A stretch of 64,000 nucleotides of DNA from an uncultured Bdellovibrionales bacterium (lineage in GTDB: Bacteria > Patescibacteriota > Minisyncoccia > Moranbacterales > UBA1568): NCBI GenBank assembly GCA_964612055.1, contig CAZTBI010000001.1:5688-69687 (forward strand). Direction: 5' to 3'. Below are positions 1,673 to 54,510 of this stretch, one piece after another (the stretch's first letter is position 1; the number at the start of each line of letters is the position of its first letter). A model generated the notes under the pieces. It searched no databases, was not told the DNA's origin, and was given only the letters and a program-made list of their open reading frames with translations. Both the position numbers and the translations under genes were made by a program.

Positions 1673-2065
1673 TTGACAAGTTCGGGGTGATTTTGCTATA
1701 TTCTCCCCAAGTTCGATTGACAACTTTTATTAGAATTCTTGAGAGAGATTTCTCCAAGGTTTTTCTAGCGCTTGTTTGCGGTAAGGCAGGGGATGACAGG
1801 GTTCCCCAAGGCTGATACCGCTCTTGTGATAGCGACACGGGGGTCGCCTTATCATAAGGCAGTCACTGGGATAGTGGCGGCAGAGAGTGTTGCGGGGTCG
1901 AGTCTGCATCCCGCACAACCTTTGTAAGCAGCATGCGCTGGGGGAGGCTCGGGTGTTCACATCCGGGTCGTCCTATTCGAGGGGAAGCAAGTGAATCACT
2001 TCGCTTCCTTCCTTCTCAAGAATTCTGATATCTCAAAAACACCTTTCGAGGTGTTTTTTGTTTTT
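1673..2065 (+). ncRNA. candidate non-coding transcript (promoter to intrinsic terminator, about 370 nt), identity unknown
   Basis: TTGACA at 1673-1678 with TATATT-like -10 at about 1698; no convincing ORF; terminator ACACCT-TTCG-AGGTGT plus T-run at 2036-2065; GTAAGGCAG motif repeated three times. Confidence 0.25.
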
Positions 2066-3291: not shown

Positions 3292-3330
3292 AAAGAACCC
3301 GCCCTTTTCCGAGGGCGGGTTTTGTTTTAG
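3292..3330 (+). terminator. rho-independent terminator
   Basis: AACCCGCCC-loop-GGGCGGGTT followed by TTTTGTTTT. Confidence 0.7.
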
Positions 3331-3341: not shown

Positions 3342-3473
3342 ATCCCGCACCTTTTTAGCTTCAAAGTTTTAATTATCAAGGAGTAGTTTGTTGAGTGATG
3401 AACGCAAGCAGGTGGATAGAGGTTTTTTTAGGGCGCATACATCCGTTTTTGTTAAGCTAAAAAGGTGCGGGAT
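3342..3473. repeat. perfect 20-bp inverted repeat (ATCCCGCACCTTTTTAGCTT) with 92-bp spacer
   Basis: arms 3342-3361 and 3454-3473 are exact reverse complements; right arm abuts the lexA -35. Confidence 0.8.
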
Positions 3474-3500
3474 TGACAACTTAAAAATCAGTTGTATACT
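3473..3500 (+). promoter_or_regulatory. lexA promoter (TTGACA-N16/17-TATACT) with candidate operator just downstream
   Basis: TTGACA 3473-3478, TATACT 3495-3500; TAGTGTAA at 3505-3512 recurs at 4183-4190 before the next gene. Confidence 0.45.
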
Positions 3501-3530
3501 TCATAGTGTAATATAGATAAACAAAAAAGT

Positions 3531-4184
3531 ATGCAAATTTTAACACCCAAGCAGAAGATCGTACTCCAGGCGATTAAGGAGTTTTTCTCCGAAAATGGAG
3601 CTATGCCGACGGTTCGAGAGATCCAAGAGGTATCGGGAAAACTGGGACTGAAGCTAAAGAGTCTACGGAGCTTTTTTATCTACTTGAATGAGCTTGAAGA
3701 AAAGGGCTATATCGAACGTACCTCGGAGGATCGTGGGATTAAGTTGAAAGGGGTCACCCAGGATAGTTTCTTAGATGTACCGGTCTTTGGTATGGCCAAT
3801 GCTGGGGCGGCCACTATGTTTGCGGAGCAGTATATCGAAGGTTACCTGAAGGTTTCGAAGCGCATCGTCCGTGATAGCCGCAATGTTTTTGCAATACAGG
3901 TATCAGGGACTTCTATGAATAAAGCGCGGGTGAATAGTAAAACCATTCAAAACGGAGACTTTATTCTTGTGGATTCAACCTGGAAGCACTACGACAATGG
4001 TGACAAAGTGCTGGTGGTGATCAATGGTATGGCAACGGTAAAAACCTACCGCACGGTTGATGGGAAAAATATCGTTCTCTTGCCGGAATCTACCGACAAA
4101 AAGCATAAACCGATCTTTCTGACAGAAGAAGATGACTTCGTGATTAATGGCAAAGTTATCGATGTATTGAAGCTCGGTTCTTAG
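3531..4184 (+). CDS. lexA: LexA transcriptional repressor (S24 peptidase)
   Basis: N-terminal wHTH, Ala-Gly cleavage region, GTSM serine and VKTY lysine of the S24 dyad. Confidence 0.85.
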   Translation: MQILTPKQKIVLQAIKEFFSENGAMPTVREIQEVSGKLGLKLKSLRSFFIYLNELEEKGYIERTSEDRGIKLKGVTQDSFLDVPVFGMANAGAATMFAEQYIEGYLKVSKRIVRDSRNVFAIQVSGTSMNKARVNSKTIQNGDFILVDSTWKHYDNGDKVLVVINGMATVKTYRTVDGKNIVLLPESTDKKHKPIFLTEEDDFVINGKVIDVLKLGS

Positions 4185-4230
4185 TGTAAAGTGAGCGGAG
4201 AGCTTCGTCTAAGCATGATATAATAGGGGC

Positions 4231-5625
4231 ATGCGGAATATGTACGATATCCGCCGCTTGTGGTTGCGGCGAATGGTGAAACTCCATACGTTTCTTTTCA
4301 CTGTCTCCTTAGGAGTGTATTTTGTTTTGGCTTTTTTTGATCCAGGGCTTCTCTCCTACGACCTCCGTCAGAAATTTCATGCTCTGGCAGACGAGACGAT
4401 TGCGGTGACGGCGACTGTTCTCGGTCCACCGGCACAACCGGTCGTGACAGCAGTTGCGGATTGCGACGAAACAAGTGGCGTGCTGAGTGTCGAGCTTGAT
4501 TGGGCAGATGATACCAATACCTATACTTATGACATTGAGCGGGATAGCGCGCCTTTGGTGAGCGGTCTTTCGAGCTCTGCCTACAGTGATACAAATGTTG
4601 TCGTAAGTACAGCCTATGAGTATGAGGTGACCGCTAATGGTCCTATGGGATCGGGTCAGGCGACATCAGACCCCGTCTCGGTGACGACTCCGGCCCTATG
4701 CGAGATCACAGCTGCTACTCCGACTGTGACTATTGTCTCCTTCTCTGGGAAAAACGTCGATTCTTATGATGGAACACCGCGTGTCAGTAACCGGCGGCCT
4801 CTCTTTACTGGGACGACGAGTATGCCGGGCGCTACTATACTTGTAACGATTGGAAACAGCTTCATCGCGGAATTTTCTGCCAATGAGAATGGGTATTGGG
4901 AATGGCGGCCACCGTATAGTATCTCATCGGGGGCGCATACCTTTACTGTGACAGCGACTGATCCAGATGATGGTTCTCGGCAGGCAACAGCGACACTGCG
5001 TTTTGATACCTTGAAAGAGAGCGATGCTGCTCAGGATGGGAAGAAGAAAGATAATCCGCTCTTAGGGGGCGGAGTTGGACAGAGTTCTTCAAGTAGTGGT
5101 CCGGGGTCTATGAATATCTCACTTTCTTTTGAGAATGATGAGTCCTTGGTACTTCAGGGAAAAGAGCTGAAACTCCACATGATGATCAGGTCGCTTATCG
5201 AACGGTACACTCATATCACCATCCCTATTCGTTATAGTTTCATCGATCAGGATTATGAGATTATTTCTTCAGAGATGCGGGACTCCTATATCGTGAATGA
5301 AGGGGAGATCCGCGAATCCTTTCCTATTCCATCATATATGTTGCCGGGGAACTACTTCCTTCAGGTGGAACTTCTTTTTGATGACATGAATATCAGTCGT
5401 ATGATACCGTTTTCTGTACAAGAGCTTCCCTTGATACAGCTTTCTAGCGGCGAGGCTGTCACCTATGCGGATGTTATTCGCAATCTCGGTTGGATAGTTT
5501 TTTTCTTCCTATTTCTCTTTCTTTTCTGGTGCTTCCTTTTCATCCGTGAGTTTGCGTTGTCTCTTCGAAGGGATAAGGAAGTGACGGAATATGATTTGAA
5601 AAAAGCAGGGTTTATTCGTAAATAG
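4231..5625 (+). CDS. membrane-anchored protein with FN3 and Ig-like domains (464 aa)
   Basis: N- and C-terminal TM helices; FN3-like block (TYTYDIERDSAPLV...YEYEVTANG); TATAAT at 4217-4222. Confidence 0.5.
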   Translation: MRNMYDIRRLWLRRMVKLHTFLFTVSLGVYFVLAFFDPGLLSYDLRQKFHALADETIAVTATVLGPPAQPVVTAVADCDETSGVLSVELDWADDTNTYTYDIERDSAPLVSGLSSSAYSDTNVVVSTAYEYEVTANGPMGSGQATSDPVSVTTPALCEITAATPTVTIVSFSGKNVDSYDGTPRVSNRRPLFTGTTSMPGATILVTIGNSFIAEFSANENGYWEWRPPYSISSGAHTFTVTATDPDDGSRQATATLRFDTLKESDAAQDGKKKDNPLLGGGVGQSSSSSGPGSMNISLSFENDESLVLQGKELKLHMMIRSLIERYTHITIPIRYSFIDQDYEIISSEMRDSYIVNEGEIRESFPIPSYMLPGNYFLQVELLFDDMNISRMIPFSVQELPLIQLSSGEAVTYADVIRNLGWIVFFFLFLFLFWCFLFIREFALSLRRDKEVTEYDLKKAGFIRK

Positions 5626-5640
5626 AAAGGGGGTGTCACT

Positions 5641-5949
5641 ATGAATATGGATATGATATTTCTTGGAGTGGATATGTTGACTATCGGATTGTTTCTTCTG
5701 GTGTTAGTATTTTCGATCGGTATCGTCTGGCGCGTAGAGAAGGAACTCGACTGGTCGTACAAGTTTTTCGTAGTGGCCGCCACCAGTGTTATGCTGGCTG
5801 ATGTCTTTGGACTGTACGCTGTCGGGCAGGGATCTACGACGATCTTACTTGGCAAAGGCTTGCGCTTCGTCGGTGCGGTAGCCTTTCTCGTGAGCGTGCT
5901 TTTTATGCGCGACATTGTACGTCGGCTCGATCATGAAAAGAAGAATTAA
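5641..5949 (+). CDS. small integral membrane protein (102 aa)
   Basis: AAAGGGGGTG RBS; three predicted TM segments. Confidence 0.5.
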   Translation: MNMDMIFLGVDMLTIGLFLLVLVFSIGIVWRVEKELDWSYKFFVVAATSVMLADVFGLYAVGQGSTTILLGKGLRFVGAVAFLVSVLFMRDIVRRLDHEKKN

Positions 5950-5951
5950 TT

Positions 5952-6497
5952 ATGGCTTATCTCAGTACTCCAAAGGTTGTTTTCCCCATTGATCCATACC
6001 GGGTAAATGGTGCCTCTTTCGGAAAGCGCGCTGCTTATGAAGGGGTATTTTGGGGTGTGCACTTGGGAGAGGACTGTGTCGTACCAGCAGGTACTGATGT
6101 CCGGGCGATTGGGCGTGGAACAGTAGTGTACGCCGCTCTCCATGTTGGTTCAAGTGAAAAGGGTAACTGGGGGTATATCGTGATTATTCGTCACAAACGG
6201 CCTCGTTCTAAAGACGTGTTTTATTCCTTGTATGGACATTTAGGTGCGAGTTTCAAGCGGATCGGAGAAAAAGTAGATGCTGGTGAGCCGCTTGGGTTTG
6301 TTGGCGAGGCCTTTACTCCCGAGAATGGTTTCTGGGAAGCTCACCTTCATTTTGCTATCTATACTGGCCCCTGGAAGGATGAGGTGTTGCCTGGTTATTG
6401 GAAGGATGGTGAAACTCGTACTCGCCCCGAATGGTGGCAGGTACCAAGTGAATTCATCATCAATTACGGTAAAGATGCACAGAAAAAAACTGCCTAG
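5952..6497 (+). CDS. M23 family metallopeptidase (LytM domain)
   Basis: HLGED ... YGHL ... HLHFAIY motif order typical of M23. Confidence 0.7.
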   Translation: MAYLSTPKVVFPIDPYRVNGASFGKRAAYEGVFWGVHLGEDCVVPAGTDVRAIGRGTVVYAALHVGSSEKGNWGYIVIIRHKRPRSKDVFYSLYGHLGASFKRIGEKVDAGEPLGFVGEAFTPENGFWEAHLHFAIYTGPWKDEVLPGYWKDGETRTRPEWWQVPSEFIINYGKDAQKKTA

Positions 6498-6515
6498 AAG
6501 GCAGTTTTTTTTCGT
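6483..6515 (+). terminator. rho-independent terminator
   Basis: CTGCCT-AGAA-GGCAG followed by T8. Confidence 0.7.
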
Positions 6516-18527: not shown

Positions 18528-18714
18528 AGAGTTAAAATTAACAATTACAACGCTGTTCCCAAAGAACGAGGTAGAACCATACGCGTATGTAGTTATGAAT
18601 TTTCACTCTCCCTATCTGTATTTTTAGTATACTCCTCTTAGTCAAGAATAGCGAATTTGTGTATGAAAATTGGGGAAACAAAAACCACCATTGGGAGATG
18701 GTAGTTTTCTTTGG

Positions 18715-41764: not shown

Positions 41765-41927
41765 ACAGGATTTCAGGTGGGTAATCTATGCTTCATTCTA
41801 TGGTTTTTTTCTATGTACTGTCAATCATGCTTTTCCGTGTATATTGATGCCGTATTTTTTTGAAAAAATGGCGAAGGCATGCTATACTTCGTAGGAAGAA
41901 AGATAAACAAAATACAAACACACAAGA

Positions 41928-43046
41928 ATGTTTCTTGGTCTACGAAAACCTTATTTTCTGGGCGTTGATTTCGGTACTGCTTCGATCAAAGTTGTTGAGT
42001 TGACCCTTGAGAATGGAAAACCGAAGCTTACGAACTACGGTCAGGCTGATTTGATGAAGCTGGAAAAGGATCGCACCCCAGGCGTTGGTCTCGGTGGTGA
42101 TGATTCGGTAGTCTATCTGCGGGCGCTTCTCGAGCAGTTACATCCAAAGAGCCAGTCAGCCTACGTTGCTATGCCGGCTTTTATTGGTCTGGTCTCTCTG
42201 ATCGAGCTTCCGGAGATGGATGAGTCTGATCTCGGTGATGCTATCAAGTTTGAAGCCCACAAATATATCCCGTCTCCGCTCGAAGAGGTGGCACTGAGCT
42301 ATGAAGTGGTAGGGATACGTCAAGGGGAAGATGGTTCACAGAAGATGGAGGTGCTTTTGGTTGCAGCGCTCAACAAGGAAGTGGATCGTTACAAACAATG
42401 TATCACTGATGCTCATCTCAAGTTGGAATTTTTGGAACTGGAAACTTTTTCTCTAGCGCGATCCCTGGTTCAGAAACAAGAAGGCTTGTATTTGATAGCT
42501 GATATCGGTTCTCGGGCTACTAATCTCATTTTGGTTGATAACGGTTTGGTGAAAGTGAGTCGTAATCTCGATGCGGGCGGGAAGGACATTACTCGCACTC
42601 TTCATGAAAGTCTTAATATTGCTGTAGAGCGAGCGGAGACTTTGAAAAAGAGTGACAAGGACTTTCTTAATGTGCCTGAGTCAGCCATGGTGTTTCCGAC
42701 CTTGGAGATGGTAGCGAGTGAAGCACAGAGGATGCTCGATACTTACCTCGCGAAATATCCAGAAAAAGAGTGCCAGGAGATGATCCTTTCTGGCGGTACG
42801 GCTCATATGGCTGGTTTGGTGGAGTACTACAAGCGGGTGCTTGGCCTCTCGGTGCGTGTTGGTGACCCGTGGCAAGGAATACAGCACGATGCCAATCGAG
42901 CGGAGGATATCAAGCAACTCGGGACTTCATTTTCTGTGGCGATTGGTCTGGCACTCGCTGGCACCGAGGCTATCACCAAAAAAGAGAAGCCCATTACTTC
43001 GAAAAAGTCTTTTTCCCTGAAAGAGCTGCTCAATAAAAAACTTTAA
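41928..43046 (+). CDS. pilM: type IV pilus assembly ATPase-like protein PilM
   Basis: actin-like fold; FLGVDFGTASIKVVEL. Confidence 0.8.
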   Translation: MFLGLRKPYFLGVDFGTASIKVVELTLENGKPKLTNYGQADLMKLEKDRTPGVGLGGDDSVVYLRALLEQLHPKSQSAYVAMPAFIGLVSLIELPEMDESDLGDAIKFEAHKYIPSPLEEVALSYEVVGIRQGEDGSQKMEVLLVAALNKEVDRYKQCITDAHLKLEFLELETFSLARSLVQKQEGLYLIADIGSRATNLILVDNGLVKVSRNLDAGGKDITRTLHESLNIAVERAETLKKSDKDFLNVPESAMVFPTLEMVASEAQRMLDTYLAKYPEKECQEMILSGGTAHMAGLVEYYKRVLGLSVRVGDPWQGIQHDANRAEDIKQLGTSFSVAIGLALAGTEAITKKEKPITSKKSFSLKELLNKKL

Positions 43047-43063
43047 CCCTTTAAAACAAAAAC

Positions 43064-43597
43064 ATGGCTGGTGTTAATCTCTCACAATCGATGACGGCTC
43101 CGGAGGGAAGATTGAAGAAAAGCGCTTCAATGTCCTTTGGTTTTCCTATCAGTATTGTCTTATTCGTGCTGACGCTCCTCGGTTGGGGAGGATTGCGTTG
43201 GTACATGTCGAGTCTCGATGGCAAGATCGCCCGTCTTGATGTCGAAATTGCTGCCAATAGCGCTGAGTTTCATAGTGAACGTGTGGAGCGAGTCGAAAAT
43301 TTCGATGACCGGCTTTCTCTCTTGAATGTTGACCCAGCGGAATCGATTGATCCGGAAAGTATTTTTCTTAAACTTGAAAGTGTCATGGTGCCTCAGGTGG
43401 TTTTGACGGAATATGAATACAATGGCGGGGAGAAACAAGTGACCGTGTCTGGAAAGACGGATAATTTCCGCTATGTTGCTGAGCAGATCATCAGTCTCAA
43501 GTCGGATCCGATGTTTTCTCAGGTTGTCGTGAGTGCTATTTCCCGGGACAAAGATGGGAAAATAACATTCACACTCGTCTCTCAATTTTTAAATTAA
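43064..43597 (+). CDS. PilN-like pilus assembly protein
   Basis: single N-terminal TM plus coiled-coil; position after pilM. Confidence 0.55.
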   Translation: MAGVNLSQSMTAPEGRLKKSASMSFGFPISIVLFVLTLLGWGGLRWYMSSLDGKIARLDVEIAANSAEFHSERVERVENFDDRLSLLNVDPAESIDPESIFLKLESVMVPQVVLTEYEYNGGEKQVTVSGKTDNFRYVAEQIISLKSDPMFSQVVVSAISRDKDGKITFTLVSQFLN

Positions 43598-43613
43598 AAG
43601 AAGTTCTTTTCCT

Positions 43614-44357
43614 ATGAGCCTGAAAATTTTGATGATTCCATTTTCGATTCTCATGATACTGGTGCTCGGTATCGGTTTTATCAAGCCGGATTTTAGCTTG
43701 ATGCAGGAGAAAAAAGTTATCTATGCGACCAAATTGCAGCAGCAGCAGAATGCTCAGATGCTGCTCGATAACATCGGAGCCCTCACGAGTTCTGTGGAAA
43801 GTCAGAAAGAAGCGGAGAAGTTTTTGGAGGACTATGTGCCAAAGGATCTCGACCAAGACAGAGTGATTGATATGCTCAACTTTTTGGCTGGTCAATCTGG
43901 GGTCGTAGCGGATGGTATCGCGCTCGAAAAAGCGGAGAAGGAGGAGGTTGTTGACGAGTCAATGCTTCTCGATGAGGCGGGGGTGCCAATCGTTCCTCCG
44001 TACACGGTCAAGACCGGCACTTATTCGGCGAAAGTGACCGTCAGGGGGCATTATGAAAATATCAAGGAGTTTTTTGGTCGCGTGGCTCATATGAATCGAT
44101 TGCACAAAACGCGAGATTTCTCTATCAATACTTCAGAAAAGAGTGAAGAGACTGCTGATGCGAGTATCTTGGAGGGGAGTTTTCGGGCAGATTTTGACTA
44201 TCTCGCACCGCGGCCAGTAGAAAGCGCGCTTAATGTGCCGGTCTTCAGTCGTGGCACATTTGATACCAATCCTTTGGGCGTTGTCTCTCAATGGGTGACC
44301 AATACGGTGCCGCTGCTTGAAAAACCAGGTACCGGCCGAGCCAATCCTTTTCAGTGA
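43614..44357 (+). CDS. PilO-like pilus assembly protein
   Basis: single TM plus coiled-coil; synteny. Confidence 0.5.
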   Translation: MSLKILMIPFSILMILVLGIGFIKPDFSLMQEKKVIYATKLQQQQNAQMLLDNIGALTSSVESQKEAEKFLEDYVPKDLDQDRVIDMLNFLAGQSGVVADGIALEKAEKEEVVDESMLLDEAGVPIVPPYTVKTGTYSAKVTVRGHYENIKEFFGRVAHMNRLHKTRDFSINTSEKSEETADASILEGSFRADFDYLAPRPVESALNVPVFSRGTFDTNPLGVVSQWVTNTVPLLEKPGTGRANPFQ

Positions 44358-44407
44358 GAGGGCACGTGATGGGTAGATGTTGATTCTCTCTATATCTTGT
44401 TTCTCTC

Positions 44408-46072
44408 TTGGGCAATATGGCAGACCAGAAAGTGACGGTAAAAAATACGAGTGATATTGAGGCTCAGGCCAAGGCTCTGGGGCTGCCGTTTTTGGAAGTG
44501 GTTCCCGAGAAAATCGACAAAACTATCCTGTCTATTATTCCTGAAGATGCTGCCAAGAAATATCACATGGCGGTCTTCCAAAGGGAGGGCGAGAGTTTGT
44601 CGGTAGCTATGGTGAATCCCCAGGACTTTGAGGCGCTGAACGTACTTCGTTTTCTGGCTGAAAAAGAGCGTTTGGATATTCAGGTGTTTCTGGTTTCCGA
44701 CAAAGTTTTTGACGAAATACTAAAAGCCTATGCTGGAACTGATCGGGCTTTGAATGAAGCTATTCTGTCCCTGAAAAAAGATGACCTGGTGATTTCCGAA
44801 AGAGAGAGTGAGGTGAAGAAGGCGTCTGAAGAAGCTGATGTCTTTCAGGATGCGCCGATAGCCAAATTGGTAGAAGTCGTTGTGAAGCACGCTCTCGATA
44901 CCCGGGCCAGCGATATCCATATTGAACCGATAGATGGTAATTACCGGGTGCGCTTTCGGGTCGATGGTTTGCTTCGTGCTGACCTGGTCTTTCCACGAGA
45001 TGTCGGACGGGCAGTTATTTCTCGTATCAAGATTCTTTCTAATCTGAAAATTGACGAAAATCGTAAACCACAGGACGGACGTTTCCGTTTTGAGACCAAG
45101 GATAGTTTCATTGACTTACGTGTTTCGAGCTTGCCGGTCATGGAGGGGGAAAAAGTCGTTATGCGTGTGCTCGAAAAAAATTCTGACGTCAGTGACTTAG
45201 AAAAACTCGGTCTCTGGGGACGGAATCGCTCGGTTCTCGAGAAAAAGATTCGCGAACCTTTTGGTATCATCTTGATTACCGGGCCGACGGGCTCTGGAAA
45301 GTCGACATCGCTCTACGCCTTTCTTCAGATTTTGAATAAAGAGGATCGAAATATCATTACCCTCGAAGACCCGGTAGAGTATTATATGGACGGTATCAAC
45401 CAGAGTCAGGTGCGTCCAGAGATTGGCTATACCTTTGCGGCGGGACTGCGCTCCGTCTTGCGTCAGGATCCAAACGTCATCATGGTGGGTGAAATCCGCG
45501 ATGGTGAGACGGCGGAACTAGCTATTCACGCGGCTCTTACGGGACACTTGGTACTCTCGACCCTTCACACCAATGACGCTATCGGAGCTATTCCTCGGCT
45601 GGTTGATATGGGCATTGAGCCGTTTCTTCTTTCTTCATCGCTTCAGGCCGTGGCGGCACAGCGTTTGGTGCGTCGTATCTGTGATGCTTGCAAAGAAGAC
45701 TTTTCGGTGACCGAAATACAGATGGGAAGAATCAAAACGCTTTTTCAGACCATTCCAAAAGTAGAGGTCGAGGCGTATGGGCTGGATGAGAATATGAAGC
45801 TCACCTTTTTCCATGGCAAGGGATGTGATAAGTGTGGCATGACCGGATATAAAGGGAGAATCGCTCTGTATGAAACGATCGAAATTGATGACGCCTTTCA
45901 CGACATCATCGCGGATCAGAAAGGAAATGAAGGGGCAGTTGGAAAAGCGGCGATAGCTCAGGGGATGCTGTTTATGAAACAGGATGGTTTACTCAAAGTA
46001 TTGAAAGGAATTACGACACTTTCCGAAGTAGAGCGTGTCACGGAAGGAAAGCTGCTTATCGATGAGGAGTAA
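44408..46072 (+). CDS. pilB: type IV pilus extension ATPase PilB/GspE
   Basis: N-terminal T2SSE_N domain, Walker A GPTGSGKST, Asp/His boxes, C-terminal CxxC...CxxC. Confidence 0.9.
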   Translation: MGNMADQKVTVKNTSDIEAQAKALGLPFLEVVPEKIDKTILSIIPEDAAKKYHMAVFQREGESLSVAMVNPQDFEALNVLRFLAEKERLDIQVFLVSDKVFDEILKAYAGTDRALNEAILSLKKDDLVISERESEVKKASEEADVFQDAPIAKLVEVVVKHALDTRASDIHIEPIDGNYRVRFRVDGLLRADLVFPRDVGRAVISRIKILSNLKIDENRKPQDGRFRFETKDSFIDLRVSSLPVMEGEKVVMRVLEKNSDVSDLEKLGLWGRNRSVLEKKIREPFGIILITGPTGSGKSTSLYAFLQILNKEDRNIITLEDPVEYYMDGINQSQVRPEIGYTFAAGLRSVLRQDPNVIMVGEIRDGETAELAIHAALTGHLVLSTLHTNDAIGAIPRLVDMGIEPFLLSSSLQAVAAQRLVRRICDACKEDFSVTEIQMGRIKTLFQTIPKVEVEAYGLDENMKLTFFHGKGCDKCGMTGYKGRIALYETIEIDDAFHDIIADQKGNEGAVGKAAIAQGMLFMKQDGLLKVLKGITTLSEVERVTEGKLLIDEE

Positions 46073-46162
46073 GAGGGTTTAATCAATAGAGGAAATCTGG
46101 TATTCTGAAGGAGATATCTTCCGAGCGTTCGAAATTCTTCGAACCTTTGGTTTAAAATAAAT

Positions 46163-47242
46163 ATGGAAACATTGCAAGTAGAGCAACGCCTGAAGAATCT
46201 GCTCCTCCTCGTGGGTCAGCAGGGGGCATCTGATCTTCACTTGGTAGTAGGGCGTTACCCGACGCTGCGTATCGATGGCAAGCTTCATCCGATTCTGCAA
46301 GAAAAGATTTTGACGCCGGCTGATACCAAGGCTTTGAGTGATGTTCTTCTGACCAATGAAAAGAAAGAAGAGCTTCTCGCGGTGGGACAAACAGACTTTT
46401 CGTATAATTTTGATGACAAGGCGCGTTTTCGTACGAACGTGTTTTTCCAAAAGGGCTACATCAGTGTCACTATGCGCTTTATCATGGATAAACTGCGCAA
46501 TTTGGAGGAGTTAAACGTCCCTAAGGCACTCTATGACTTTGCTGGGCATTCTCAGGGGCTAGTGCTCGTGACTGGGCCGGTGGGTCATGGGAAGTCGACG
46601 ACCTTGGCGGCTATCATCGACTATATCAATCACAACCAGGAGAAGCACATCGTTACTATCGAGGATCCGATCGAATTTGTGTACAATCAGGATCGCTGTA
46701 TCATCAATCAGCGTGAGATCGGTCGTGATGCCAAGACCTTTCCGGATGCTCTGCGCGCCATCTTTCGTGAAGACGTGAACGTGGTGCTTTTGGGAGAGCT
46801 TCGTGACCTCGAGACGATCAGTACCGCGATGACAGCTGCGGAAACAGGGCATCTCATTTTTGCTACTCTCCATACCAACGACAGTTCTCAGACCATCGAT
46901 CGTATCGTCGATGTTTTCCCAGCGTATCAGCAAAACCAGATTCGCTCTCAACTGGCGAGCGTGCTTCTCGGGGTTATCTCGCAGCGTCTTTTGCCGCAAA
47001 CGAGTGGTGGACGTGTGCCCGCGGTGGAAATCATGATCAAGAACCACGCTATTGAGAACCTTATTCGGGAGAACAAGGATCATCAGCTTGATTCCGTGAT
47101 TGAAACGAGTTTGAAAGAAGGGATGGTGTCTTTGGATCGATCCTTAGCTGACCTGGTGCTCCGTGGCCTGGTATCGGTCAATGATGCCTTTGTTTACGCC
47201 AAGAATCGTGATTATCTCCAGATGCTTCTTTCAAAAAAATAA
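46163..47242 (+). CDS. pilT: twitching-motility retraction ATPase PilT
   Basis: GPVGHGKSTT Walker A; AIRHLIRE-like C-terminal region (AIENLIRE). Confidence 0.9.
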   Translation: METLQVEQRLKNLLLLVGQQGASDLHLVVGRYPTLRIDGKLHPILQEKILTPADTKALSDVLLTNEKKEELLAVGQTDFSYNFDDKARFRTNVFFQKGYISVTMRFIMDKLRNLEELNVPKALYDFAGHSQGLVLVTGPVGHGKSTTLAAIIDYINHNQEKHIVTIEDPIEFVYNQDRCIINQREIGRDAKTFPDALRAIFREDVNVVLLGELRDLETISTAMTAAETGHLIFATLHTNDSSQTIDRIVDVFPAYQQNQIRSQLASVLLGVISQRLLPQTSGGRVPAVEIMIKNHAIENLIRENKDHQLDSVIETSLKEGMVSLDRSLADLVLRGLVSVNDAFVYAKNRDYLQMLLSKK

Positions 47243-47275
47243 AGAGAATATTATCAAAAAGTGAGCTGAATACCT

Positions 47276-48484
47276 ATGAAGTTTGTTTTCAAGGCAAAAA
47301 ATAGTCAGGGCAAGGTACGCGAAGGCATGGTAGAGTCTCTCAATGCTGAGTCGGCCGCTACCATATTGGAACGCAACAACCTAGTGCCGATTTCGATAGT
47401 CGAAGAAAAGCAGGTGCCAACTATCGTGAAGCAAGTCCAAAAGCTGTGGGAGGGCGTAAAGCAGAAAGAGCTTATGGTGTTCTTTCAGCAGCTTTCGACG
47501 CTCATTGGGGCGCATGTACCCGTGGTTTCGGCCCTCCGCACTATTGAAGAGCAGGTAGCTAACCGCTATTTCAAGATCGTGATCAAGGAAATGGCCGATG
47601 ATGTCGAAGATGGGTTACAGTTCTCATCAGCGATCGAAAAACATGCAGACGTTTTTTCGCCACTCACTGTCAGTATGCTCCGCGCTGGGGAGGTCTCCGG
47701 AGAGCTTCAGCGGGCCATCGATGTGGTTTCTCAGAATATTGAGAAAAACTACCAGTTGAGTGCCAAGATCAAAGGTGCCTTGTACTACCCGATCTTCGTC
47801 ATCACGGTGGCTCTTATCATTGGTTTTTTGGTGGTGACCTTTATCTTGCCGAGAATTACTGTCATGATCAAGGACCTCCATGTTCCTATCCCATGGTATA
47901 CGGCAGTGCTCATTTGGGTGGGAGATTTCATGAGTGTCTATTGGTGGGCAGTACTCCTGGCGATTATCGCCATGGTAGGAGGAGTTCTGTATTATGCTCG
48001 GACTCCGGTGGGGAAGAGAGAGTGGGAGCAGCTTCTCCTCAAGATTCCGGTTGTTGGGGCACTCTCGCGCAATATCTATATCACGCGTTTTTCAGAAAAT
48101 CTTGCTGCTTTGCTTGATGGTGGCATTCCGGTAGTACGGGCTCTGACTATCGCCAGTGAAGTAGTGGGCAATAATGTCTACGAAAAAATTATTTTGAAGG
48201 CGGCTGATGAGGTGAAGTCAGGCGGTACTATGAGTACAGTCTTTCTTCGTTCCAATGAATTCCCCCCAATTGTTTCGCAGATGGTACGGATTGGTGAGGA
48301 AACAGGGTCGCTTGCTTCGGTACTGATGAGTGTTGCCAAGTTTTATAATCAGGAGGTAGAAACTATGACGCGAAGCTTGACCGCTTTGATCGAGCCAATT
48401 CTTATTGTCTTTCTGGGTATCGGTGTCGGTATACTGGTGGTTGGGGTACTGCTTCCAATTTACAATATCGCTTCGCAGTTGTAA
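47276..48484 (+). CDS. pilC: type IV pilus platform protein PilC (two T2SS-F domains)
   Basis: duplicated GspF domains, three TM. Confidence 0.85.
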   Translation: MKFVFKAKNSQGKVREGMVESLNAESAATILERNNLVPISIVEEKQVPTIVKQVQKLWEGVKQKELMVFFQQLSTLIGAHVPVVSALRTIEEQVANRYFKIVIKEMADDVEDGLQFSSAIEKHADVFSPLTVSMLRAGEVSGELQRAIDVVSQNIEKNYQLSAKIKGALYYPIFVITVALIIGFLVVTFILPRITVMIKDLHVPIPWYTAVLIWVGDFMSVYWWAVLLAIIAMVGGVLYYARTPVGKREWEQLLLKIPVVGALSRNIYITRFSENLAALLDGGIPVVRALTIASEVVGNNVYEKIILKAADEVKSGGTMSTVFLRSNEFPPIVSQMVRIGEETGSLASVLMSVAKFYNQEVETMTRSLTALIEPILIVFLGIGVGILVVGVLLPIYNIASQL

Positions 48485-48584
48485 CTGTAACGGTTGTGGT
48501 CTGAAGGGGAAATATATGTTATACTAAAAAAAGAAAAGAAGAGTAAAAATAAAAATTAAAAACAAAAAAGAAGGAGGTGAGCAT

Positions 48585-48965
48585 ATGAAAAAAACATTGA
48601 AAGGATTTACGCTGATTGAACTTTTGATCGTTATCGCCATTATTGGTATTTTGGCATCGATCGTGTTGGTAAGTTTGAGCGGTGCTCGTGTAAAGGCTCA
48701 AAAAGCAGCATTTAAAGCTGAAGTAGCTGGCGCGACTGCTGGTCTTAATATCGGGTGTGATGATGCTGATACTGTTACATTTGTAGAACCGGCTGATACT
48801 GCAACAACAGACTGGGCTGCTTTTACGGGCACTCCAAGCTGTGGAGCGGCAGGTGATGGTACGTTCTCTATCGACGCTGTGCCTTTGGCAGCTGGTGTTA
48901 TTGCGGATGGCTGTACTGGAGCAACAGTAACAGAAACAGGTGCTGATTTTACAAATTGTCCATAA
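48585..48965 (+). CDS. type IV major pilin
   Basis: AAGGAGGTGA RBS; class III signal MKKTLKG|[17 protein letters not shown]; two Cys near C-terminus. Confidence 0.8.
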
Positions 48966-49002
48966 TCTCTCGTATCATTTAAATCAAAGGGAGGTGAATC
49001 TT

Positions 49003-49362
49003 ATGAAAAAAACATTAAAAGGATTTACGCTGATTGAACTCTTGATCGTTATCGCGATCATCGGTATTTTGGCGTCGATCGTGTTGGTAAGCTTGAGCAG
49101 CGCTCGAGGTAAGGCTCAGTTGGCAGCATTTAAAGCTGAAACAGCTGGTGCTGTGGCTGGACTTCTTATTGTATGTGATACAGGCAATATTACGCTCCCA
49201 AACGATACTACAACTACGAATTGGGGGGCAATAACTAACCAGAGTTGTGGTCCAACAAGAGGTGGTGGATTTAACGTTACAGCAACCCCGATTAATGCGG
49301 GTATTGTCTGTAATGCTACAGTGAGTGGTACTGGAACCACGTACGTTGGAGCAGGATGTTAG
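49003..49362 (+). CDS. type IV major pilin paralog
   Basis: AAAGGGAGGTGA RBS; N-terminal about 50 aa nearly identical to the upstream pilin, C-terminal divergent. Confidence 0.8.
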
Positions 49363-49380
49363 TGTCTTGCAATAAAGCTT

Positions 49381-49415
49381 TTAAAACAAGGGCGTAATGC
49401 CCTTGTTTTATCTTA
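49381..49415 (+). terminator. intrinsic terminator after pilin pair
   Basis: ACAAGGGC-GTAAT-GCCCTTGT followed by TTTATCTT. Confidence 0.7.
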
Positions 49416-49517
49416 TAGATCACGCTTCAGTACTTAATGTTCGTTGTTCAAGAGACGGGTCTATGGTATTCTAAGAGTACTAATACTCCCTTTAACGGGT
49501 AGTTTATTTTTAGTATT

Positions 49518-51191
49518 ATGACCATACCAAGGGTACTCTCCCAGAGTCTGGGAAGAATTTATCGGCTGTTCGTATCGAGTACTGCCCTTAGGTTTTTTTT
49601 TGTTTTTATTTTTTTCTGCCTCTTTTTTTCGTTTTACCTCTTTTTCTATACTTTCACCTCTACTGATGACCAATTCTTCAATGTAAGATTGGCGCAAAAA
49701 ATCAGCGTCGAGGGGCTTAGTATTCTTCAAAACTTCAATGAATTTTCTGAAGTAACTGCCCGTCCATGGGTTTTTAATATTCTTTTTTATTATCTCCTTA
49801 TTCCTTTTACGTGGTTTTATCCTCTTGAACTAGGGATTAAGGTCTTTGCTGTAACTAGCTTGGCGTTTACATTTACCGTCATCTTCTTTTTTCTTGAAAA
49901 AAATAATATTAAAAAGTCGTTTCTTTGGTTGTTATTAGCTGTTGGTTTTTTCTTTACCCCTCCTGATCTCTGGCATTTTTTAATGGCACGTGCCTTTGTA
50001 TTGGTGCCAGCTTTACTTATCCTCCTTCTCTATTTTTTACAAATAAAGAATTATGGAGCTCTTTTTTTTCTATCCTTCCTTTCTTTTTTTCTCCACACAG
50101 CAACTTTCTTTTTGCCGCTGGTAGTAGGAATAATCTTTTGCGTTTTTTCTTGGCAAAGTACAAGACGTTCAGTATTGTTTTCGTTGTTGAGTGTTGTAGG
50201 CGGAACTGCCGCAGCGCTTCTTCTTGGCGCTCTTTTTATCCCGGGTTTTCTTCCCATTGTGTGGAATTTCTGGGATTCTCTTTATAGAATTGTAGTATCT
50301 TTTCATGTATCAAGTTTCGTGCAAATTGATGAAGGAATGGAAAGTTATCCGACGACGTTGTTTGATATTTTTTCACAGCACGCGATTTTGATCGCGCTTC
50401 TTATCATGTTCACCGGTTCGTACGTAGCACGTATTTTTGAGGCGAATCGAAGAAGGGTATCTTTTGGAAATCCTGTGCAGCTCACCTTGATGGCGCTTTC
50501 CATTCTTTTTTTATTGGGATCATTTATTACTAAGCGTAACCTGGATTTTTTCTTCGTCTTTTCTAGTCTATTTCTGCTGCTGGCTCTCTCTGAATTCTTT
50601 GAAACTATAAAATTCAATGTAAAAAGAATACATATTTTTTCTTTAGGGGTGGTTATTTTCGTGGCTCTCGCCTCTCAATTGTTGGCTATTATGGATATGC
50701 TTGCTGTCTCTTCTGATTATGCAAGTATCAAAGGAGCCGCTCAATGGGCGAAAGAGCATACAGAAAAAGGCAGCGTGGTCTTCAATCCTACGATGAATTT
50801 TTTTCCAACATTTTATTTCTATAATGAGGGTCATAATAAGATGATTGTCGGTATTGAGCCGCGAGATTTTTATCAGACCAATTCAAGGAAATACTGGCTC
50901 TGGTATAACCTCTCTGCTTATGGAGTGATTTGCGGAGAGCAAAAGTGCGCTAGAGAAACTGCTTTGCGTGACGCGATGCTACAATCTTATAAAGACCAAT
51001 GGTACAAGGAAAACGGAGAAAGAGTGAGGGATCTTCTTCTGAATGAATTTTCAACGAACTTGATACTTGTAAGGCCTGATTTTATTGCTTTACAGCCATT
51101 GTTGCAAAACAGTCCTTCATTTGAAGAGGTCTACGCTACGCCGATAACGAAAACATATACTCTGTATCGTATAAAAGAAATTGATAAATAA
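49518..51191 (+). CDS. GT-C-fold-like polytopic membrane protein (ArnT/PMT/TfpW-like glycosyltransferase candidate)
   Basis: about 12-13 TM N-terminal domain plus about 130-aa soluble C-terminal domain. Confidence 0.4.
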   Translation: MTIPRVLSQSLGRIYRLFVSSTALRFFFVFIFFCLFFSFYLFFYTFTSTDDQFFNVRLAQKISVEGLSILQNFNEFSEVTARPWVFNILFYYLLIPFTWFYPLELGIKVFAVTSLAFTFTVIFFFLEKNNIKKSFLWLLLAVGFFFTPPDLWHFLMARAFVLVPALLILLLYFLQIKNYGALFFLSFLSFFLHTATFFLPLVVGIIFCVFSWQSTRRSVLFSLLSVVGGTAAALLLGALFIPGFLPIVWNFWDSLYRIVVSFHVSSFVQIDEGMESYPTTLFDIFSQHAILIALLIMFTGSYVARIFEANRRRVSFGNPVQLTLMALSILFLLGSFITKRNLDFFFVFSSLFLLLALSEFFETIKFNVKRIHIFSLGVVIFVALASQLLAIMDMLAVSSDYASIKGAAQWAKEHTEKGSVVFNPTMNFFPTFYFYNEGHNKMIVGIEPRDFYQTNSRKYWLWYNLSAYGVICGEQKCARETALRDAMLQSYKDQWYKENGERVRDLLLNEFSTNLILVRPDFIALQPLLQNSPSFEEVYATPITKTYTLYRIKEIDK

Positions 51192-51194
51192 TGT

Positions 51195-52235
51195 ATGGAT
51201 TCTCAGTTACGTATTATCGTGATTGGAGGTGGATGGGTAACCGAGAATAGGCATTTGCCTGCTTTAAGAAAAGAGAGGCGTATCTTGCTTCAGTCTGTAA
51301 TAAGCAAGAATGTCGATCGGGCTGAATTTCTCAAAAAGAAATTTTCTGCCAAGACATATTTTGGCGGGGATGGAGTGGATTTCTCACAGGTACTCCAAGG
51401 TTGTGATGCGGTAGTGATAGGATCGGACCCATTTTCTCATTATGAAATTGCCAAACAAGCCATTGCTTTAGGTAAGCATGTTTTAATGGAAAAACCGCTG
51501 ACGTTGTCGGTGGTAGAGTCGGCCGAATTGGTAGGGTTAGCTAAAGAGAAAAAGATACGTTTTGCGGTGGTGCATAATTTCCAGTTTTCCCAATCAGCCT
51601 CTGCTCTGAAAGAAGATATAGAGAAGGGCAAACTCGGAGAGATCCGGTCTTTGGAGGCAAAGCAATATAGTAACGAGAAAAGAAGACTGCCAGTTTGGTA
51701 TGAGGATTTGCCCTGGGGTCTTTTTTATGATGAATCGCCGCATCTTTTGTATCTTCTTGAGATGGTAGGAGGAAAACAAAGCCTTCAACATTCTCAGGTG
51801 CTGTTTCGATCAGGGGTCACTACGCCTGTGTTGGTGGAAGGTCTTTTAATAGGTGAAACAGGAATACCTTCGGTGCTGAGTATGAACTTTTCTGCTTCAC
51901 TTTCTGAATGGTTCCTTATTGTTCATGGATCAAAACGCACCGGTATACTTGATATTTTCCGGGATACTTACTTTTCTCTCCCAAATGACGGTAAACACAC
52001 GCCCAAGGATATTTTCCGGACTTCATGGCTCGTCTTTTTTGGGCATTTTACGGGAGTTGTAAAAAGTGGAATCAAGGTATTGAGAGGGGGCTATCTTTGC
52101 GGTAATGAAGAAGTGGTCAAGAGATTTGTTGATGCTGTTTTGGATAACAGGCCGCTGGGGACTCTGGATGCTGAAAACGGACTGCGGATAAACGCTTTGC
52201 AACATGAAATAATGGAGCGCTCATTTCATCTATAG
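51195..52235 (+). CDS. Gfo/Idh/MocA family NAD(P)-dependent oxidoreductase
   Basis: Rossmann IVIGGGWVTENRHLPAL and EKP motif. Confidence 0.8.
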   Translation: MDSQLRIIVIGGGWVTENRHLPALRKERRILLQSVISKNVDRAEFLKKKFSAKTYFGGDGVDFSQVLQGCDAVVIGSDPFSHYEIAKQAIALGKHVLMEKPLTLSVVESAELVGLAKEKKIRFAVVHNFQFSQSASALKEDIEKGKLGEIRSLEAKQYSNEKRRLPVWYEDLPWGLFYDESPHLLYLLEMVGGKQSLQHSQVLFRSGVTTPVLVEGLLIGETGIPSVLSMNFSASLSEWFLIVHGSKRTGILDIFRDTYFSLPNDGKHTPKDIFRTSWLVFFGHFTGVVKSGIKVLRGGYLCGNEEVVKRFVDAVLDNRPLGTLDAENGLRINALQHEIMERSFHL

Positions 52236-53380
52236 TGTCTATGCTTGCAACGAAAAAGAAGGTGTTGGTAGTGGCTACTCATTTTCCTCCCCACACAGGG
52301 GGAGTAGAAAAATACACCCTCGACTTTTTTTCAGTATTAGGACAGGAATATCGAAATCTCGACATCAGTATTCTTTCCCTGCAAACCGCCAAAGCACCAA
52401 AGCGTGAAAGGATAGGGGTGCTAAATGTGGTGAGGGTTCCATGTTTTGGATCAGATATTAATCCATTTTTTTCTCCTAAAAAAGTCCAGGGAGCTTTAGA
52501 GGACATGGATTTTTCTTCTTTCGATCTCGTCATTACCCAATGCCGGTATTATCTTTTCACTGGATACATGGTCTTTACAGCGCGGCGTAAAGGAATGCCT
52601 GTGTTGCACATCGAGCATAATGCCGGATACATGCTTCACAAGAACCCCCTCATTACTTTGATAGCGAGACTGTACGATGTTTTTATTGGTAGAAAAGTTT
52701 TGAGTAAGGCGACGTCTATTGTTGCGATTTCTGAGAGCGTGAAAAAATTTCTTAAAGAAAATTTCAAGATAACGGGTGCTATTGAAGTGATTCCTGGCGG
52801 CATACAGACAAAAGAGTGGGTCGGTTCAGAATCTCTTTCTGATACAAAAACGTTTGTGTATTGCGGAAGGCTTATTCGTGAAAAGGGCGTTTCGATCCTT
52901 TTGGAAGCATTCGAAATGTTGCAAAATAAGTATCCGGAAACTTCTCTCAAGATTCTGGGAGATGGTCCTGAGATGGGGCTTCTAAAAAGACAAGTTTTAG
53001 AAAAAAAATTGGAGAAACGGGTGGAGTTCTTTGGTGTAGTATCAAGCGATTTTATAAAGAATCTTTATAAAATAAAACCCGTCTTTGTCAATCCTTCATT
53101 CTATGCAGAAGGTTTTCAAATCGCTCTCTTAGAAGCAGTAGCGAGTGGATTACCGATTATTACTACTTCAGTCGGCGGGGCAGGGGAATTGCTCGAAGCA
53201 AATAGGAGTGCCCTTTTTGTTGTTTCTCGGGATAAAAAATCTCTTTTTTATGCCATGGAAGAGTATTTGCTTTTTCCACAAAAAGCAGATACGTATAGCT
53301 CTGTCGCTTCACGGAAGGTGAAGGAATATTTTTCGCAAGAGAAAATGGTTGAAAAGTTCTACCGATATGTTTTTTCATAG
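52235..53380 (+). CDS. family-4 glycosyltransferase (GT-B)
   Basis: EGFQIALLEAVASGLPIITTSVGG (E-X7-E motif). Confidence 0.8.
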   Translation: MSMLATKKKVLVVATHFPPHTGGVEKYTLDFFSVLGQEYRNLDISILSLQTAKAPKRERIGVLNVVRVPCFGSDINPFFSPKKVQGALEDMDFSSFDLVITQCRYYLFTGYMVFTARRKGMPVLHIEHNAGYMLHKNPLITLIARLYDVFIGRKVLSKATSIVAISESVKKFLKENFKITGAIEVIPGGIQTKEWVGSESLSDTKTFVYCGRLIREKGVSILLEAFEMLQNKYPETSLKILGDGPEMGLLKRQVLEKKLEKRVEFFGVVSSDFIKNLYKIKPVFVNPSFYAEGFQIALLEAVASGLPIITTSVGGAGELLEANRSALFVVSRDKKSLFYAMEEYLLFPQKADTYSSVASRKVKEYFSQEKMVEKFYRYVFS

Positions 53381-53756
53381 AAATCTTCAATTTTTTCGTT
53401 TTGTTGTAATCGGAGGTTTTTCTTATGGATTAAGTCTTCTCTTTTTGATATTTTTGATAGAAATTCTTGCCCTTCCTTACCTTGTAGCAACAGCACTTGT
53501 CTTTTTTGGTATCAACGGTTTAAGCTTTTTTATGAATAAGAGGTATACTTTTTTATTAACAGGGGGTCTTTTCCAAACAGAGCTTCTTCGATATTATGGA
53601 ATCATGCTTCTCAGCTTGATTCTGAATTTGGCTGGAATGTATATGTTGGTAGGGATTCTGCAGTTTTCTATAGTCGTAGCGAGTATAATTGTGTCAGGCG
53701 TTCTTTTATTTTTTAACTATTTTTTTCATAAAAATTTTACTTTTCGTACCAAATAA
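53367..53756 (+). CDS. GtrA family protein
   Basis: four TM; FFRFVVIGGFSYGLSL; overlaps the GT4 stop. Confidence 0.6.
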   Translation: MFFHRNLQFFRFVVIGGFSYGLSLLFLIFLIEILALPYLVATALVFFGINGLSFFMNKRYTFLLTGGLFQTELLRYYGIMLLSLILNLAGMYMLVGILQFSIVVASIIVSGVLLFFNYFFHKNFTFRTK

Positions 53757-53760
53757 TTTT

Positions 53761-54510
53761 ATGGCTCAGTACGATATTTTCTTTCAGAACGAACATCCAA
53801 AAATAGCTCAGAGATTTTTAACCTGGCTGAATTTTTCTTTGTTTCAGTTTCTTAAAAGGAACATTGTTTCTAAAGAAGCAAGCAAGGTGCGTATCTTGGA
53901 GATCGGTCCTGGGAAAGGATACTTTTACCAAGCAATATCGAAAGCAAAAAATGTTTCTTATGTGGCATGTGACCGAAACATTTCTTTCCGTCAATCTTTT
54001 CCAGAAGCTGAATTTTACCTTGCTACAGCGCCTTCCTTTCCTGAAAACATCGGTACTTTCGACATGATTTACGCATCTTATGTAGTGGAGCATCTGAGTG
54101 ATGGATTGGCTGTGGCAGAACTTCTCCGCGGTTGTCTGAAACACCTCAATCCTGGTGGGATTGTAGTTATAACTTGTCCAAATGCTTTGGCGCAGAAGTT
54201 TGAATTTTGGAATATGGATTATACCCATCGATATCCTACAACCGCACGAAATATACACATGGCTTTTTTAGAAGCCGGATTTTCTAGCACGGAGATATAT
54301 GAAATATCTGGATTGTTGACGTTCCCAGGCTTTACTTTCAGGCCATTTCAGTGGTGTCTCAAAGTGGTATTGTTTTTTTATCGTTACAGAGTGATGCATT
54401 TTTTCTTTGGCTGGATTTTGAAAAAGAAATTATACGAATTGAATAACTCTTTCTACCGATTATATTGTCTAGTAAAGCAGGAAAATTTACTGTGTATTGG
54501 TAAGAAATAA
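53761..54510 (+). CDS. class I SAM-dependent methyltransferase
   Basis: motif I LEIGPGKGY; ATG 53761 follows the GtrA stop. Confidence 0.7.
   Translation: MAQYDIFFQNEHPKIAQRFLTWLNFSLFQFLKRNIVSKEASKVRILEIGPGKGYFYQAISKAKNVSYVACDRNISFRQSFPEAEFYLATAPSFPENIGTFDMIYASYVVEHLSDGLAVAELLRGCLKHLNPGGIVVITCPNALAQKFEFWNMDYTHRYPTTARNIHMAFLEAGFSSTEIYEISGLLTFPGFTFRPFQWCLKVVLFFYRYRVMHFFFGWILKKKLYELNNSFYRLYCLVKQENLLCIGKK

Follow-up and report, generated by a model that had tools for sequence, protein, structure and literature searches.

A lexA gene predicted to be self-repressed through a lineage-specific 19-bp promoter-operator, and its relation to the envelope genes that follow it

The 64,000-nucleotide stretch of contig CAZTBI010000001.1 that was analyzed here (the window) carries a lexA gene on the + strand, followed on the same strand by three genes for envelope-type proteins, and it raises the question of what controls lexA and how far that control extends. 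The original prediction had taken the four genes as a single SOS operon, with a motif found both at the lexA promoter and at the end of lexA as its operator and with the downstream products as SOS-induced division inhibitors. A comparison with related loci points to a different arrangement. We consider it very likely that lexA is an ordinary self-repressed gene with a lineage-specific 19-bp promoter-operator at its start, that the same promoter-operator module, reused before other genes of related genomes, marks a damage-inducible regulon, and that the envelope genes are a separate unit.

The product of the gene (3531 to 4184, + strand) is a 217-amino-acid LexA repressor that combines an N-terminal winged-helix domain with an S24 autopeptidase domain. 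It matched TIGR00498 at 119.8 bits in an NCBIfam profile search (cut-off, 110.95) and, in a Pfam profile search, PF01726 at 41.1 bits and PF00717 at 78.7 bits. In an alignment to E. coli LexA structures, A91-G92, S128 and K171 of the window protein corresponded to A84-G85, S119 and K156, and all four residues were invariant among 15 LexA homologues. With the domain architecture of TIGR00498, the Ala-Gly cleavage site and the Ser/Lys dyad all present, the open reading frame (ORF) is, as judged from its translation, that of a canonical LexA. It differs from the E. coli protein in the presumed recognition helix, which reads KSLRSFF in place of SPNAAEEH and is preceded by an insertion of 2 to 5 residues.

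The homologues of the window LexA carry the source names Candidatus Moranbacteria and Moraniibacteriota (Patescibacteria, candidate phyla radiation [CPR]). Taking one genome per species, we assembled a comparison set of 77 Moranbacteria lexA loci with 60 to 97% protein identity; the same scan also returned 1 unrelated locus. Among loci L001 to L074, the title "uncultured Bdellovibrionales bacterium" is borne by many metagenome-assembled genome records whose lexA and synteny are of the Moranbacteria type, and the title "Candidatus Fimivivens" by one; such records probably represent mislabelled bins.

A promoter scan placed the −35 hexamer of lexA, TTGACA, at 3473 to 3478 and the −10 hexamer, TATACT, at 3495 to 3500 (both + strand), which are 16 nt apart and agree with the consensus at 11 of 12 positions. 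The −35 hexamer is conserved in the aligned Moranbacteria lexA upstream regions, and the −10 hexamer occupies alignment columns −23 to −18, at 0.5 to 1.8 bits each. When the upstream regions of 60 loci were aligned, these hexamers proved to be part of a larger conserved module consisting of TTGACA, 16 to 18 nt, TATACT, 5 nt and the sequence RTG(T/A)AA-N5-GTAAACA. The last of these is a two-part element of 19 bp in which the first G of the right half is less fixed, so that this half may be written (G)TAAACA. In the window, the element is AGTGTAATATAGATAAACA (3505 to 3523, + strand), with a left half, GTGTAA, at 3506 to 3511 and a right half, ATAAACA, at 3517 to 3523, and we predict that it is the LexA operator (SOS box). 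It would lie across the expected transcription start, whose position is itself a prediction.

Conservation of this element at lexA is nearly complete. It sits directly upstream of lexA in 65 of the 74 assessable loci, and in another 8 it belongs to the promoter of the gene immediately before lexA, which has the same orientation, so that lexA is the second gene of an operon there; the divergent locus L075 has only a variant of the site. Counting direct and operon promoters together, lexA is thus served by a promoter with the operator in 73 of 74 loci. Scored with a position-specific scoring matrix (PSSM), the window site reached 22.6 bits, against a maximum of 15.1 bits in shuffled windows, and it was the sole PSSM site of the 64-kb window to stand in a promoter context. 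In related DNA totalling 766 kb, all sites that scored 15.5 bits or more were located directly behind a −10 element, 63 of them at lexA and 14 at other promoters, and the matrix scan detected none outside a promoter context.

One other operator-like site was seen in the window, TATGAAAATTGGGGAAACA at 18662 to 18680 (+ strand), which at 17.7 bits outscored each of 20 shuffles. The nearest −10-like hexamer is 30 nt away; the site lies between a membrane-protein gene and a tRNA-Glu gene on the − strand, and there is no + strand gene downstream of it. Given this placement, we treated it as non-functional or a relic.

The distance between the operator and the −10 element is constant, whereas that between the operator and the start codon varies by locus from approximately 10 to 100 nt. 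This combination implies that the operator acts at the DNA level, as part of the promoter and not of an mRNA leader, and on this ground a reading of the operator as a leader-RNA or translation signal was rejected. A hairpin or other RNA element in the operator spacer was likewise considered and dropped, as excess complementarity was at most 0.18 over 57 sites and its register was inconsistent. Complementarity of 9 bp between the −10 element and the right half of the operator was found at L017, L037 and L044. Separately, four loci (L011, L012, L034 and L064) have an insertion of 40 to 50 nt between the operator and the lexA ATG that contains a conserved hairpin, GTTACA...TGTAAC, followed by GGGACAAG.

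In the mechanism that we propose, lexA would be transcribed from the near-consensus sigma-70 promoter at 3473 to 3478 and 3495 to 3500, and a LexA dimer on 3505 to 3523, across the transcription start, would block RNA polymerase, so that lexA represses itself. On DNA damage, RecA filaments would trigger the self-cleavage of LexA at Ala91-Gly92 through Ser128 and Lys171, and repression would be lifted. The promoter-operator module before other genes of related genomes would then define the damage-inducible regulon of the lineage.

What stands behind the module elsewhere bears directly on this proposal. Among the Moranbacteria loci, the same module precedes NUDIX genes in L021, L022 and L024, genes for Bro-N proteins in L019 and L072, and, in L070, a gene whose product matches the DinD equivalog model NF008573 at 338.6 bits (cut-off, 242); RhuM, RhuM-Fic, DUF3800 and PemK-like toxin genes also lie behind it in related loci. 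A metagenome scan for promoter plus operator, which required an exact TTGACA and in which our counts refer to the matches listed, added at least 19 further lexA genes, at least 9 Bro-N, at least 3 RhuM, at least 2 DinD and at least 1 KilA-N genes, as well as at least 2 genes for a 717-amino-acid GHKL-type ATPase. DinD of the L146/L165 cluster, again behind the module, scored 326.2 bits against the same cut-off. We attributed the remaining matches of the scan to chance in AT-rich DNA; an example is an identical gut sequence that appeared at least 15 times, 76 to 107 nt upstream of a 70-amino-acid ORF. In E. coli, dinD is a classic LexA target, and the likeness here consists of full-length equivalogs directly behind the same module, although the genes come from related genomes and not from the window. 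The recurrence of the module before DinD, Bro-N, KilA-N, RhuM/Fic, PemK, DUF3800 and NUDIX genes supports its identification as the LexA box of the lineage, and hence RTG(T/A)AA-N5-GTAAACA as the predicted LexA box of Moranbacteria. The arrangement resembles the autoregulation of LexA at an SOS box in E. coli and Gram-positive bacteria, in that a winged-helix and S24 protein with an Ala-Gly site and a Ser/Lys dyad is involved; in E. coli, too, the operator overlaps the promoter of lexA itself and recurs at other damage-inducible genes, dinD among them. The sequence of the Moranbacteria operator, and probably its symmetry, depart from those of the E. coli and Gram-positive boxes.

More distant LexA proteins are associated with a related site. 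At least three metagenome LexAs with 40 to 42% identity to the window protein have the KSxRS helix in common with it and carry a tandem GTAAACA-AG-GTAAACA at the same place. We also observed, in metagenome contigs with a G+C content of approximately 0.31, a 244-amino-acid LexA paralogue (L105, 288 to 1100; L192, 3743 to 4560) that has 26% identity to the window LexA and a helix reading SSEQAVLRLL. This paralogue and the main LexA type of the low-GC contigs have the same tandem GTAAACA operator before them, and the paralogue may be a second, LexA-controlled LexA.

In some genomes, accessory genes with the module are found just upstream of lexA itself, each with a near-identical promoter-operator module of approximately 50 nt. 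These cassettes encode DUF3800, RhuM, RhuM-Fic, Bro-N and PemK-like proteins (L016, 1800 to 3650; L018, 600 to 1590; L019, 4430 to 5360; L072, 3270 to 4360; L009, 600 to 2360; and L012, 360 to 820), and their placement suggests that the neighbourhood of lexA collects damage-inducible cassettes. The near-identity of the modules before different accessory genes in L016, L018, L019 and L072, as if they had been copied whole, is what one would also expect if the conserved element were not a LexA site but the target of another regulator, or a promoter-proximal or 5′-leader element of a portable promoter cassette. LexA binding at the site is in any case a prediction, and no repair gene was seen behind the element among the metagenome matches listed. 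Nevertheless, of 74 assessable genomes, 73 have the element at the promoter that serves lexA, and distant LexA lineages have it there too, which is the signature of LexA autoregulation, and DinD carries it in independent contigs. The varying start-codon distance at a fixed −10 distance speaks against a role in translation or in a leader RNA, and the complementarity in the spacer is weak and inconsistent. We therefore regard a non-LexA element as very improbable indeed and retain the reading of the site as a LexA operator.

Several points weigh against our account. A tblastn search with an approximate E. coli RecA query found no recA in the window or in any of the 212 loci, and no recA, uvrA/B, ruvAB or translesion polymerase genes were present in the window or in any locus of the set. 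No canonical SOS or repair gene stood behind the operator-bearing promoters among the metagenome matches listed. In the window, recG and tag appear without an operator; both were recognized from translations only, and they are not core SOS genes. That LexA is the protein at the site we infer from position and regulon content only. Three further points concern parts of the account and are given with them below: the exact repeat of the original motif, the palindrome that fits the sites about as well as a direct repeat, and an M23 gene directly behind lexA in L039.

The motif of the original prediction can now be placed. Its two occurrences of the 8-mer core TAGTGTAA are both real, with coordinates given one base too high, and there is indeed a candidate operator just downstream of the lexA −10 element, of which TAGTGTAA makes up only the left half. 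Taken by itself, the core is unremarkable (2 copies, where 0.81 would be expected, and 2 or more in 19 of 100 shuffles). The TTC-N-T prefix that had been included in the motif turned out in the alignment to be unconserved spacer between the −10 element and the operator, so that the extended 12-mer TTCNTAGTGTAA reads as spacer plus left half-site. This 12-mer occurs exactly twice in the window, at 3500 to 3511 and 4178 to 4189, within 680 bp; none of 100 shuffles contained it. The second copy, TTCTTAGTGTAA (4178 to 4189, + strand), consists of GGT TCT TAG (Gly-Ser-stop) and TGTAA, i.e., the last lexA codons and the start of the intergenic region. The right half is missing from this copy, which scored −3.4 bits against the 22.6 bits of the site at the promoter and is identical only in the same-species contigs L079 to L081; in every other species examined, the sequence of the junction between lexA and the 4231 gene is different, even in L001, whose LexA is 97% identical. 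The proposal that the second copy is an operator for the 4231 gene was therefore rejected, and we judge the copy to be a species-specific, non-functional coincidence, a judgement that is drawn from its non-conservation and has the exact repeat against it.

How the two halves of the operator relate to each other is less clear-cut. LexA operators of E. coli (CTGT-N8-ACAG) and of Gram-positive bacteria (GAAC-N4-GTTC) are familiar, and the SOS network of Patescibacteria has reportedly been described by Sanchez-Osuna, Barbe and Erill (Environ Microbiol 2017; ref. 52 of PMC7739468 and ref. 9 of PMC8565304). Self-identity within the sites peaked at a period of 9 bp, at 0.47 and 0.55 in two site sets, as expected of two half-sites in the same orientation at a fixed spacing. 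Perfect tandem sites, GTAAACA-AG-GTAAACA, occur in the metagenome contigs L105, L170, L183, L192 and L195, and a clean tandem GTAAAC(A) is found in L040, L060 and L061 as well. A complementarity of 0.50 about a single centre matches the direct-repeat signal in strength, so that the same 3505-to-3523 operator can also be read as an imperfect palindrome, (G/A)TGTA plus TAAAC (GTnTA-N7-TAnAC), or as TGT-N11-ACA, whose left half, TGTA, would resemble that of E. coli. Such a palindrome fits the Moranbacteria sites about equally well, and L044 has a perfect TAGTGT...ACACTA. Yet only 3 of its 5 positions are kept at the tandem sites (in the lineage with the 40 to 42% identical LexA and in L040, L060 and L061), and the two operator halves are conserved asymmetrically.

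Most known LexA boxes are palindromic (PMC8565304). Direct-repeat boxes have been described in Alphaproteobacteria, GTTC-N7-GTTC, and in Balneolaeota, TTACACATATTTTWTACATA (PMC8565304; PMC7739468), and a passage of the latter source lists a Patescibacteria SOS study among cases in which LexA evolved to recognize a direct repeat. As far as that passage goes, the motif of the same superphylum is grouped with direct repeats and not with palindromes. The Moranbacteria site is similar to the Alphaproteobacteria and Balneolaeota boxes in having two same-orientation half-sites bound, as we predict, by a canonical LexA, and the TTAC core of the Balneolaeota motif is shared with the opposite strand of the window site, TGTTTAC-N5-TTACA; it differs in its half-site sequence and in its period, which is 9 bp as opposed to 11 bp in Alphaproteobacteria and approximately 13 bp in Balneolaeota. 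A text search of the literature for GTAAAC together with LexA returned nothing relevant. Preferring the direct repeat because clean tandem sites exist and because it agrees with PMC7739468, we conclude that the most probable reading of the operator is GTAA(AC) repeated in the same orientation at a period of 9 bp; the palindromic reading is a serious alternative that we nonetheless hold to be unlikely.

We then come to the envelope genes. Three ORFs follow lexA on the + strand, with gaps of 46, 15 and 2 bp, and the predicted gene order of lexA, an Ig-like protein, a 102-amino-acid membrane protein and an M23-type protein was borne out by the ORFs and family matches. The first ORF (4231 to 5625) encodes a 464-amino-acid Ig-like envelope protein with an N-terminal hydrophobic segment, one or more Ig-like domains and a C-terminal transmembrane helix with a basic tail; its hydropathy peaks at residues 18 to 36 and 420 to 438. 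Its description as an FN3/Ig protein held for the Ig part, through a weak Big_13 match (29.7 bits; cut-off, 27), whereas FN3 was merely hinted at by a sub-threshold match to part of an exoglucanase model. Orthologues with 45 to 65% identity were found in 16 loci. The second ORF (5641 to 5949) encodes TM102, a 102-amino-acid membrane protein with three hydrophobic segments by hydropathy and no Pfam family match, which among the loci compared was found only directly behind the Ig-like gene. The third (5952 to 6497) encodes a 181-amino-acid protein similar to M23-family metallopeptidases (PF01551, 55.2 bits), which has the zinc motifs of the family, H37-L-G-E-D41 (HxxxD) and H131-L-H133 (HxH), and which, in NCBIfam, matched best to an internal domain of the 1,015-amino-acid PRK06148. 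Hydropathy revealed no signal peptide, transmembrane or other hydrophobic segment in it, which makes a role as a secreted peptidoglycan hydrolase doubtful. An intrinsic terminator at 6483 to 6512 (+ strand; an A-run, CTGCC-TAGAA-GGCAG and T8, with the stop codon in the loop) would end the unit; it was read from the sequence and is not in the automatic scan list.

The separate TATAAT that had been proposed for the first of these genes is present at 4219 to 4224 and is preceded by TG-a, giving an extended −10 promoter, TGaTATAAT (4216 to 4224, + strand), which is separated by 6 nt from the ATG at 4231. The sequence cGTGGTATAAT or TGATATAAT is conserved 6 to 8 nt before the start codon of the Ig-like gene in 16 loci, and the same extended −10 element is kept in L042 and L072, where this gene lies behind DUF378 and not behind lexA. 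A −10 element that ends 6 to 8 nt before the ATG implies that the mRNA of the Ig-like gene would be leaderless or nearly so. The M23 gene usually has its own promoter across the loci, and in L016 and L018, we observed the same arrangement at M23 genes: TGGTATACT, 6 nt and the ATG.

These promoters have no LexA box. Upstream of the three envelope genes, the best PSSM scores were −3.4, −6.9 and −2.3 bits, and no site of at least 15.5 bits was found near any Ig-like, TM102 or M23 orthologue in the 766 kb of related DNA. Linkage to lexA is also limited. The order lexA, Ig-like gene, TM102 and M23 is restricted to the clade in which LexA is at least 91% identical, plus L065; the module is rearranged in L042 and L072, lies 5.6 kb upstream in L024 and is missing within 6 kb of lexA in roughly half of the loci. 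In the other loci, the gene behind lexA is a SIMPL, DUF378, DsbB-like, M23 or unrelated one. An apparent "M23 cluster" beside lexA in several loci was discarded, as it had been merged with membrane proteins of approximately 167 amino acids through a frameshifted ORF of L075; these proteins have a CPLC motif and are DsbB-like by eye. lexA thus appears to sit in a loosely conserved block of envelope genes, and the three genes of the window would be a separate, operator-less module with its own conserved extended −10 promoter at 4216 to 4224.

Could these genes still be SOS-induced division inhibitors? The likeness to YneA, ChiZ/Rv2719c, DivS and SosA (and also SidA) is that all are small membrane or cell wall-related genes adjoining lexA. 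The promoters of the known SOS inhibitors contain LexA boxes, and most of these genes are transcribed divergently from lexA. The window genes differ in being co-directional with lexA and in having an operator-less promoter of their own; none of the three proteins has a LysM domain in a Pfam profile search, and the M23-type protein has no export signal. The analogy fails on the feature that sequence could test, a LexA box in the promoter of the envelope genes themselves, and their linkage to lexA is not conserved beyond the clade and scattered rearranged cases. A role as SOS-induced division inhibitors is unsupported.

The four-gene operon of the original prediction, in which TTCNTAGTGTAA would serve twice as the operator and the products would act like YneA, ChiZ, SidA and DivS, does draw on real features: the exact 12-mer repeat, four genes on one strand with short gaps between flanking terminators and none within, and the occurrence in many Moranbacteria, under several arrangements, of an M23 gene no more than approximately 2 kb behind lexA. 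It founders on a second copy that has neither a right half nor conservation outside the species, on the unconserved TTC-N-T, on the absence of LexA boxes near these genes in 766 kb, and on a module promoter that is conserved whether or not lexA is adjacent, and the inhibitors to which it appeals have boxes of their own. We consider it highly unlikely.

A weaker form of coupling is conceivable. The terminator scan was empty between lexA and the 4231 gene, and a terminator or attenuator at this junction was rejected, since the fold there was no better than shuffles (z = −0.52). With no terminator behind lexA, some damage-induced read-through would be possible, in which damage would de-repress the lexA promoter and transcription would continue into the Ig-like/TM102/M23 module, raising it above its constitutive level. 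The best hint of such read-through, and the simplest form of such an arrangement, is L039, where an M23 gene lies directly behind lexA, at 50 nt, with no visible promoter. We think this quite unlikely for the window; if true, it might lead to envelope remodelling or a division delay and would be a CPR analogue of YneA/ChiZ that works by operon read-through and not by a LexA box of its own. For the present, we keep to the reading of the envelope genes as a separate unit.

On its other side, the lexA transcription unit is bounded by a predicted intrinsic terminator behind the upstream SIMPL/DUF541 gene (3296 to 3329, no strand assigned), with a stem, AACCCGCCC...GGGCGGGTT, and a T-rich tail; it was identified from the sequence, the terminator scan and the inverted repeat I3, and we take it to be the 5′ limit of the unit. 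Between it and the promoter, perfect 20-bp inverted repeats (3342 to 3361 and 3454 to 3473) flank a segment of 92 bp that abuts the lexA −35 hexamer, with TTGA on both outer flanks. The element is also present upstream of lexA in L003, L015, L009, L005 to L007 and L012, and it is absent in loci such as L002, L008, L011 and L014. Between L003 and L015 it is flipped (117 nt, 74% identity, minus strand), with arms and flanks unflipped; the three same-species contigs have it in one orientation only. Either a miniature inverted-repeat insertion or an invertible segment beside the promoter could account for it.

Two other features of the window were recorded. A candidate structured non-coding RNA at 1673 to 2065 (+ strand) has a TTGACA-N17-TATATT promoter, approximately 340 nt without an ORF and an intrinsic terminator. 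Its fold energy is −152.9 kcal/mol, against −113 ± 5.8 in shuffles (z = −6.9), and it matched no Rfam family at an E value of ≤1. It is conserved at 100% in L079 and at 78% in L080 and L081, where LexA is identical, with compensatory changes at seven base pairs and the 20-bp closing helix kept. What appears to be a cluster of type IV pilus-like genes at 41900 to 61200, recognized from translations and composition only, includes ATPases, a platform protein, several prepilin-like ORFs and a prepilin peptidase-like ORF; glycosyltransferase-like ORFs, judged from translations, lie in a stretch of lower G+C content (0.39 to 0.41 at 48 to 56 kb).

Taken together, these results set aside, as unsupported, the attractive idea that the envelope genes next to lexA are SOS division inhibitors and put in its place a concrete predicted LexA box for Moranbacteria, RTG(T/A)AA-N5-GTAAACA at the transcription start, which a lineage with a LexA only approximately 40% identical appears to share. 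It is probably a further case of a LexA that reads a direct repeat, a type already reported for the superphylum. As sampled, the site-bearing promoters serve mostly DinD, Bro-N, KilA-N, RhuM, Fic and toxin genes and not repair genes. The predicted box would allow SOS regulons to be forecast in uncultured bacteria with small genomes.

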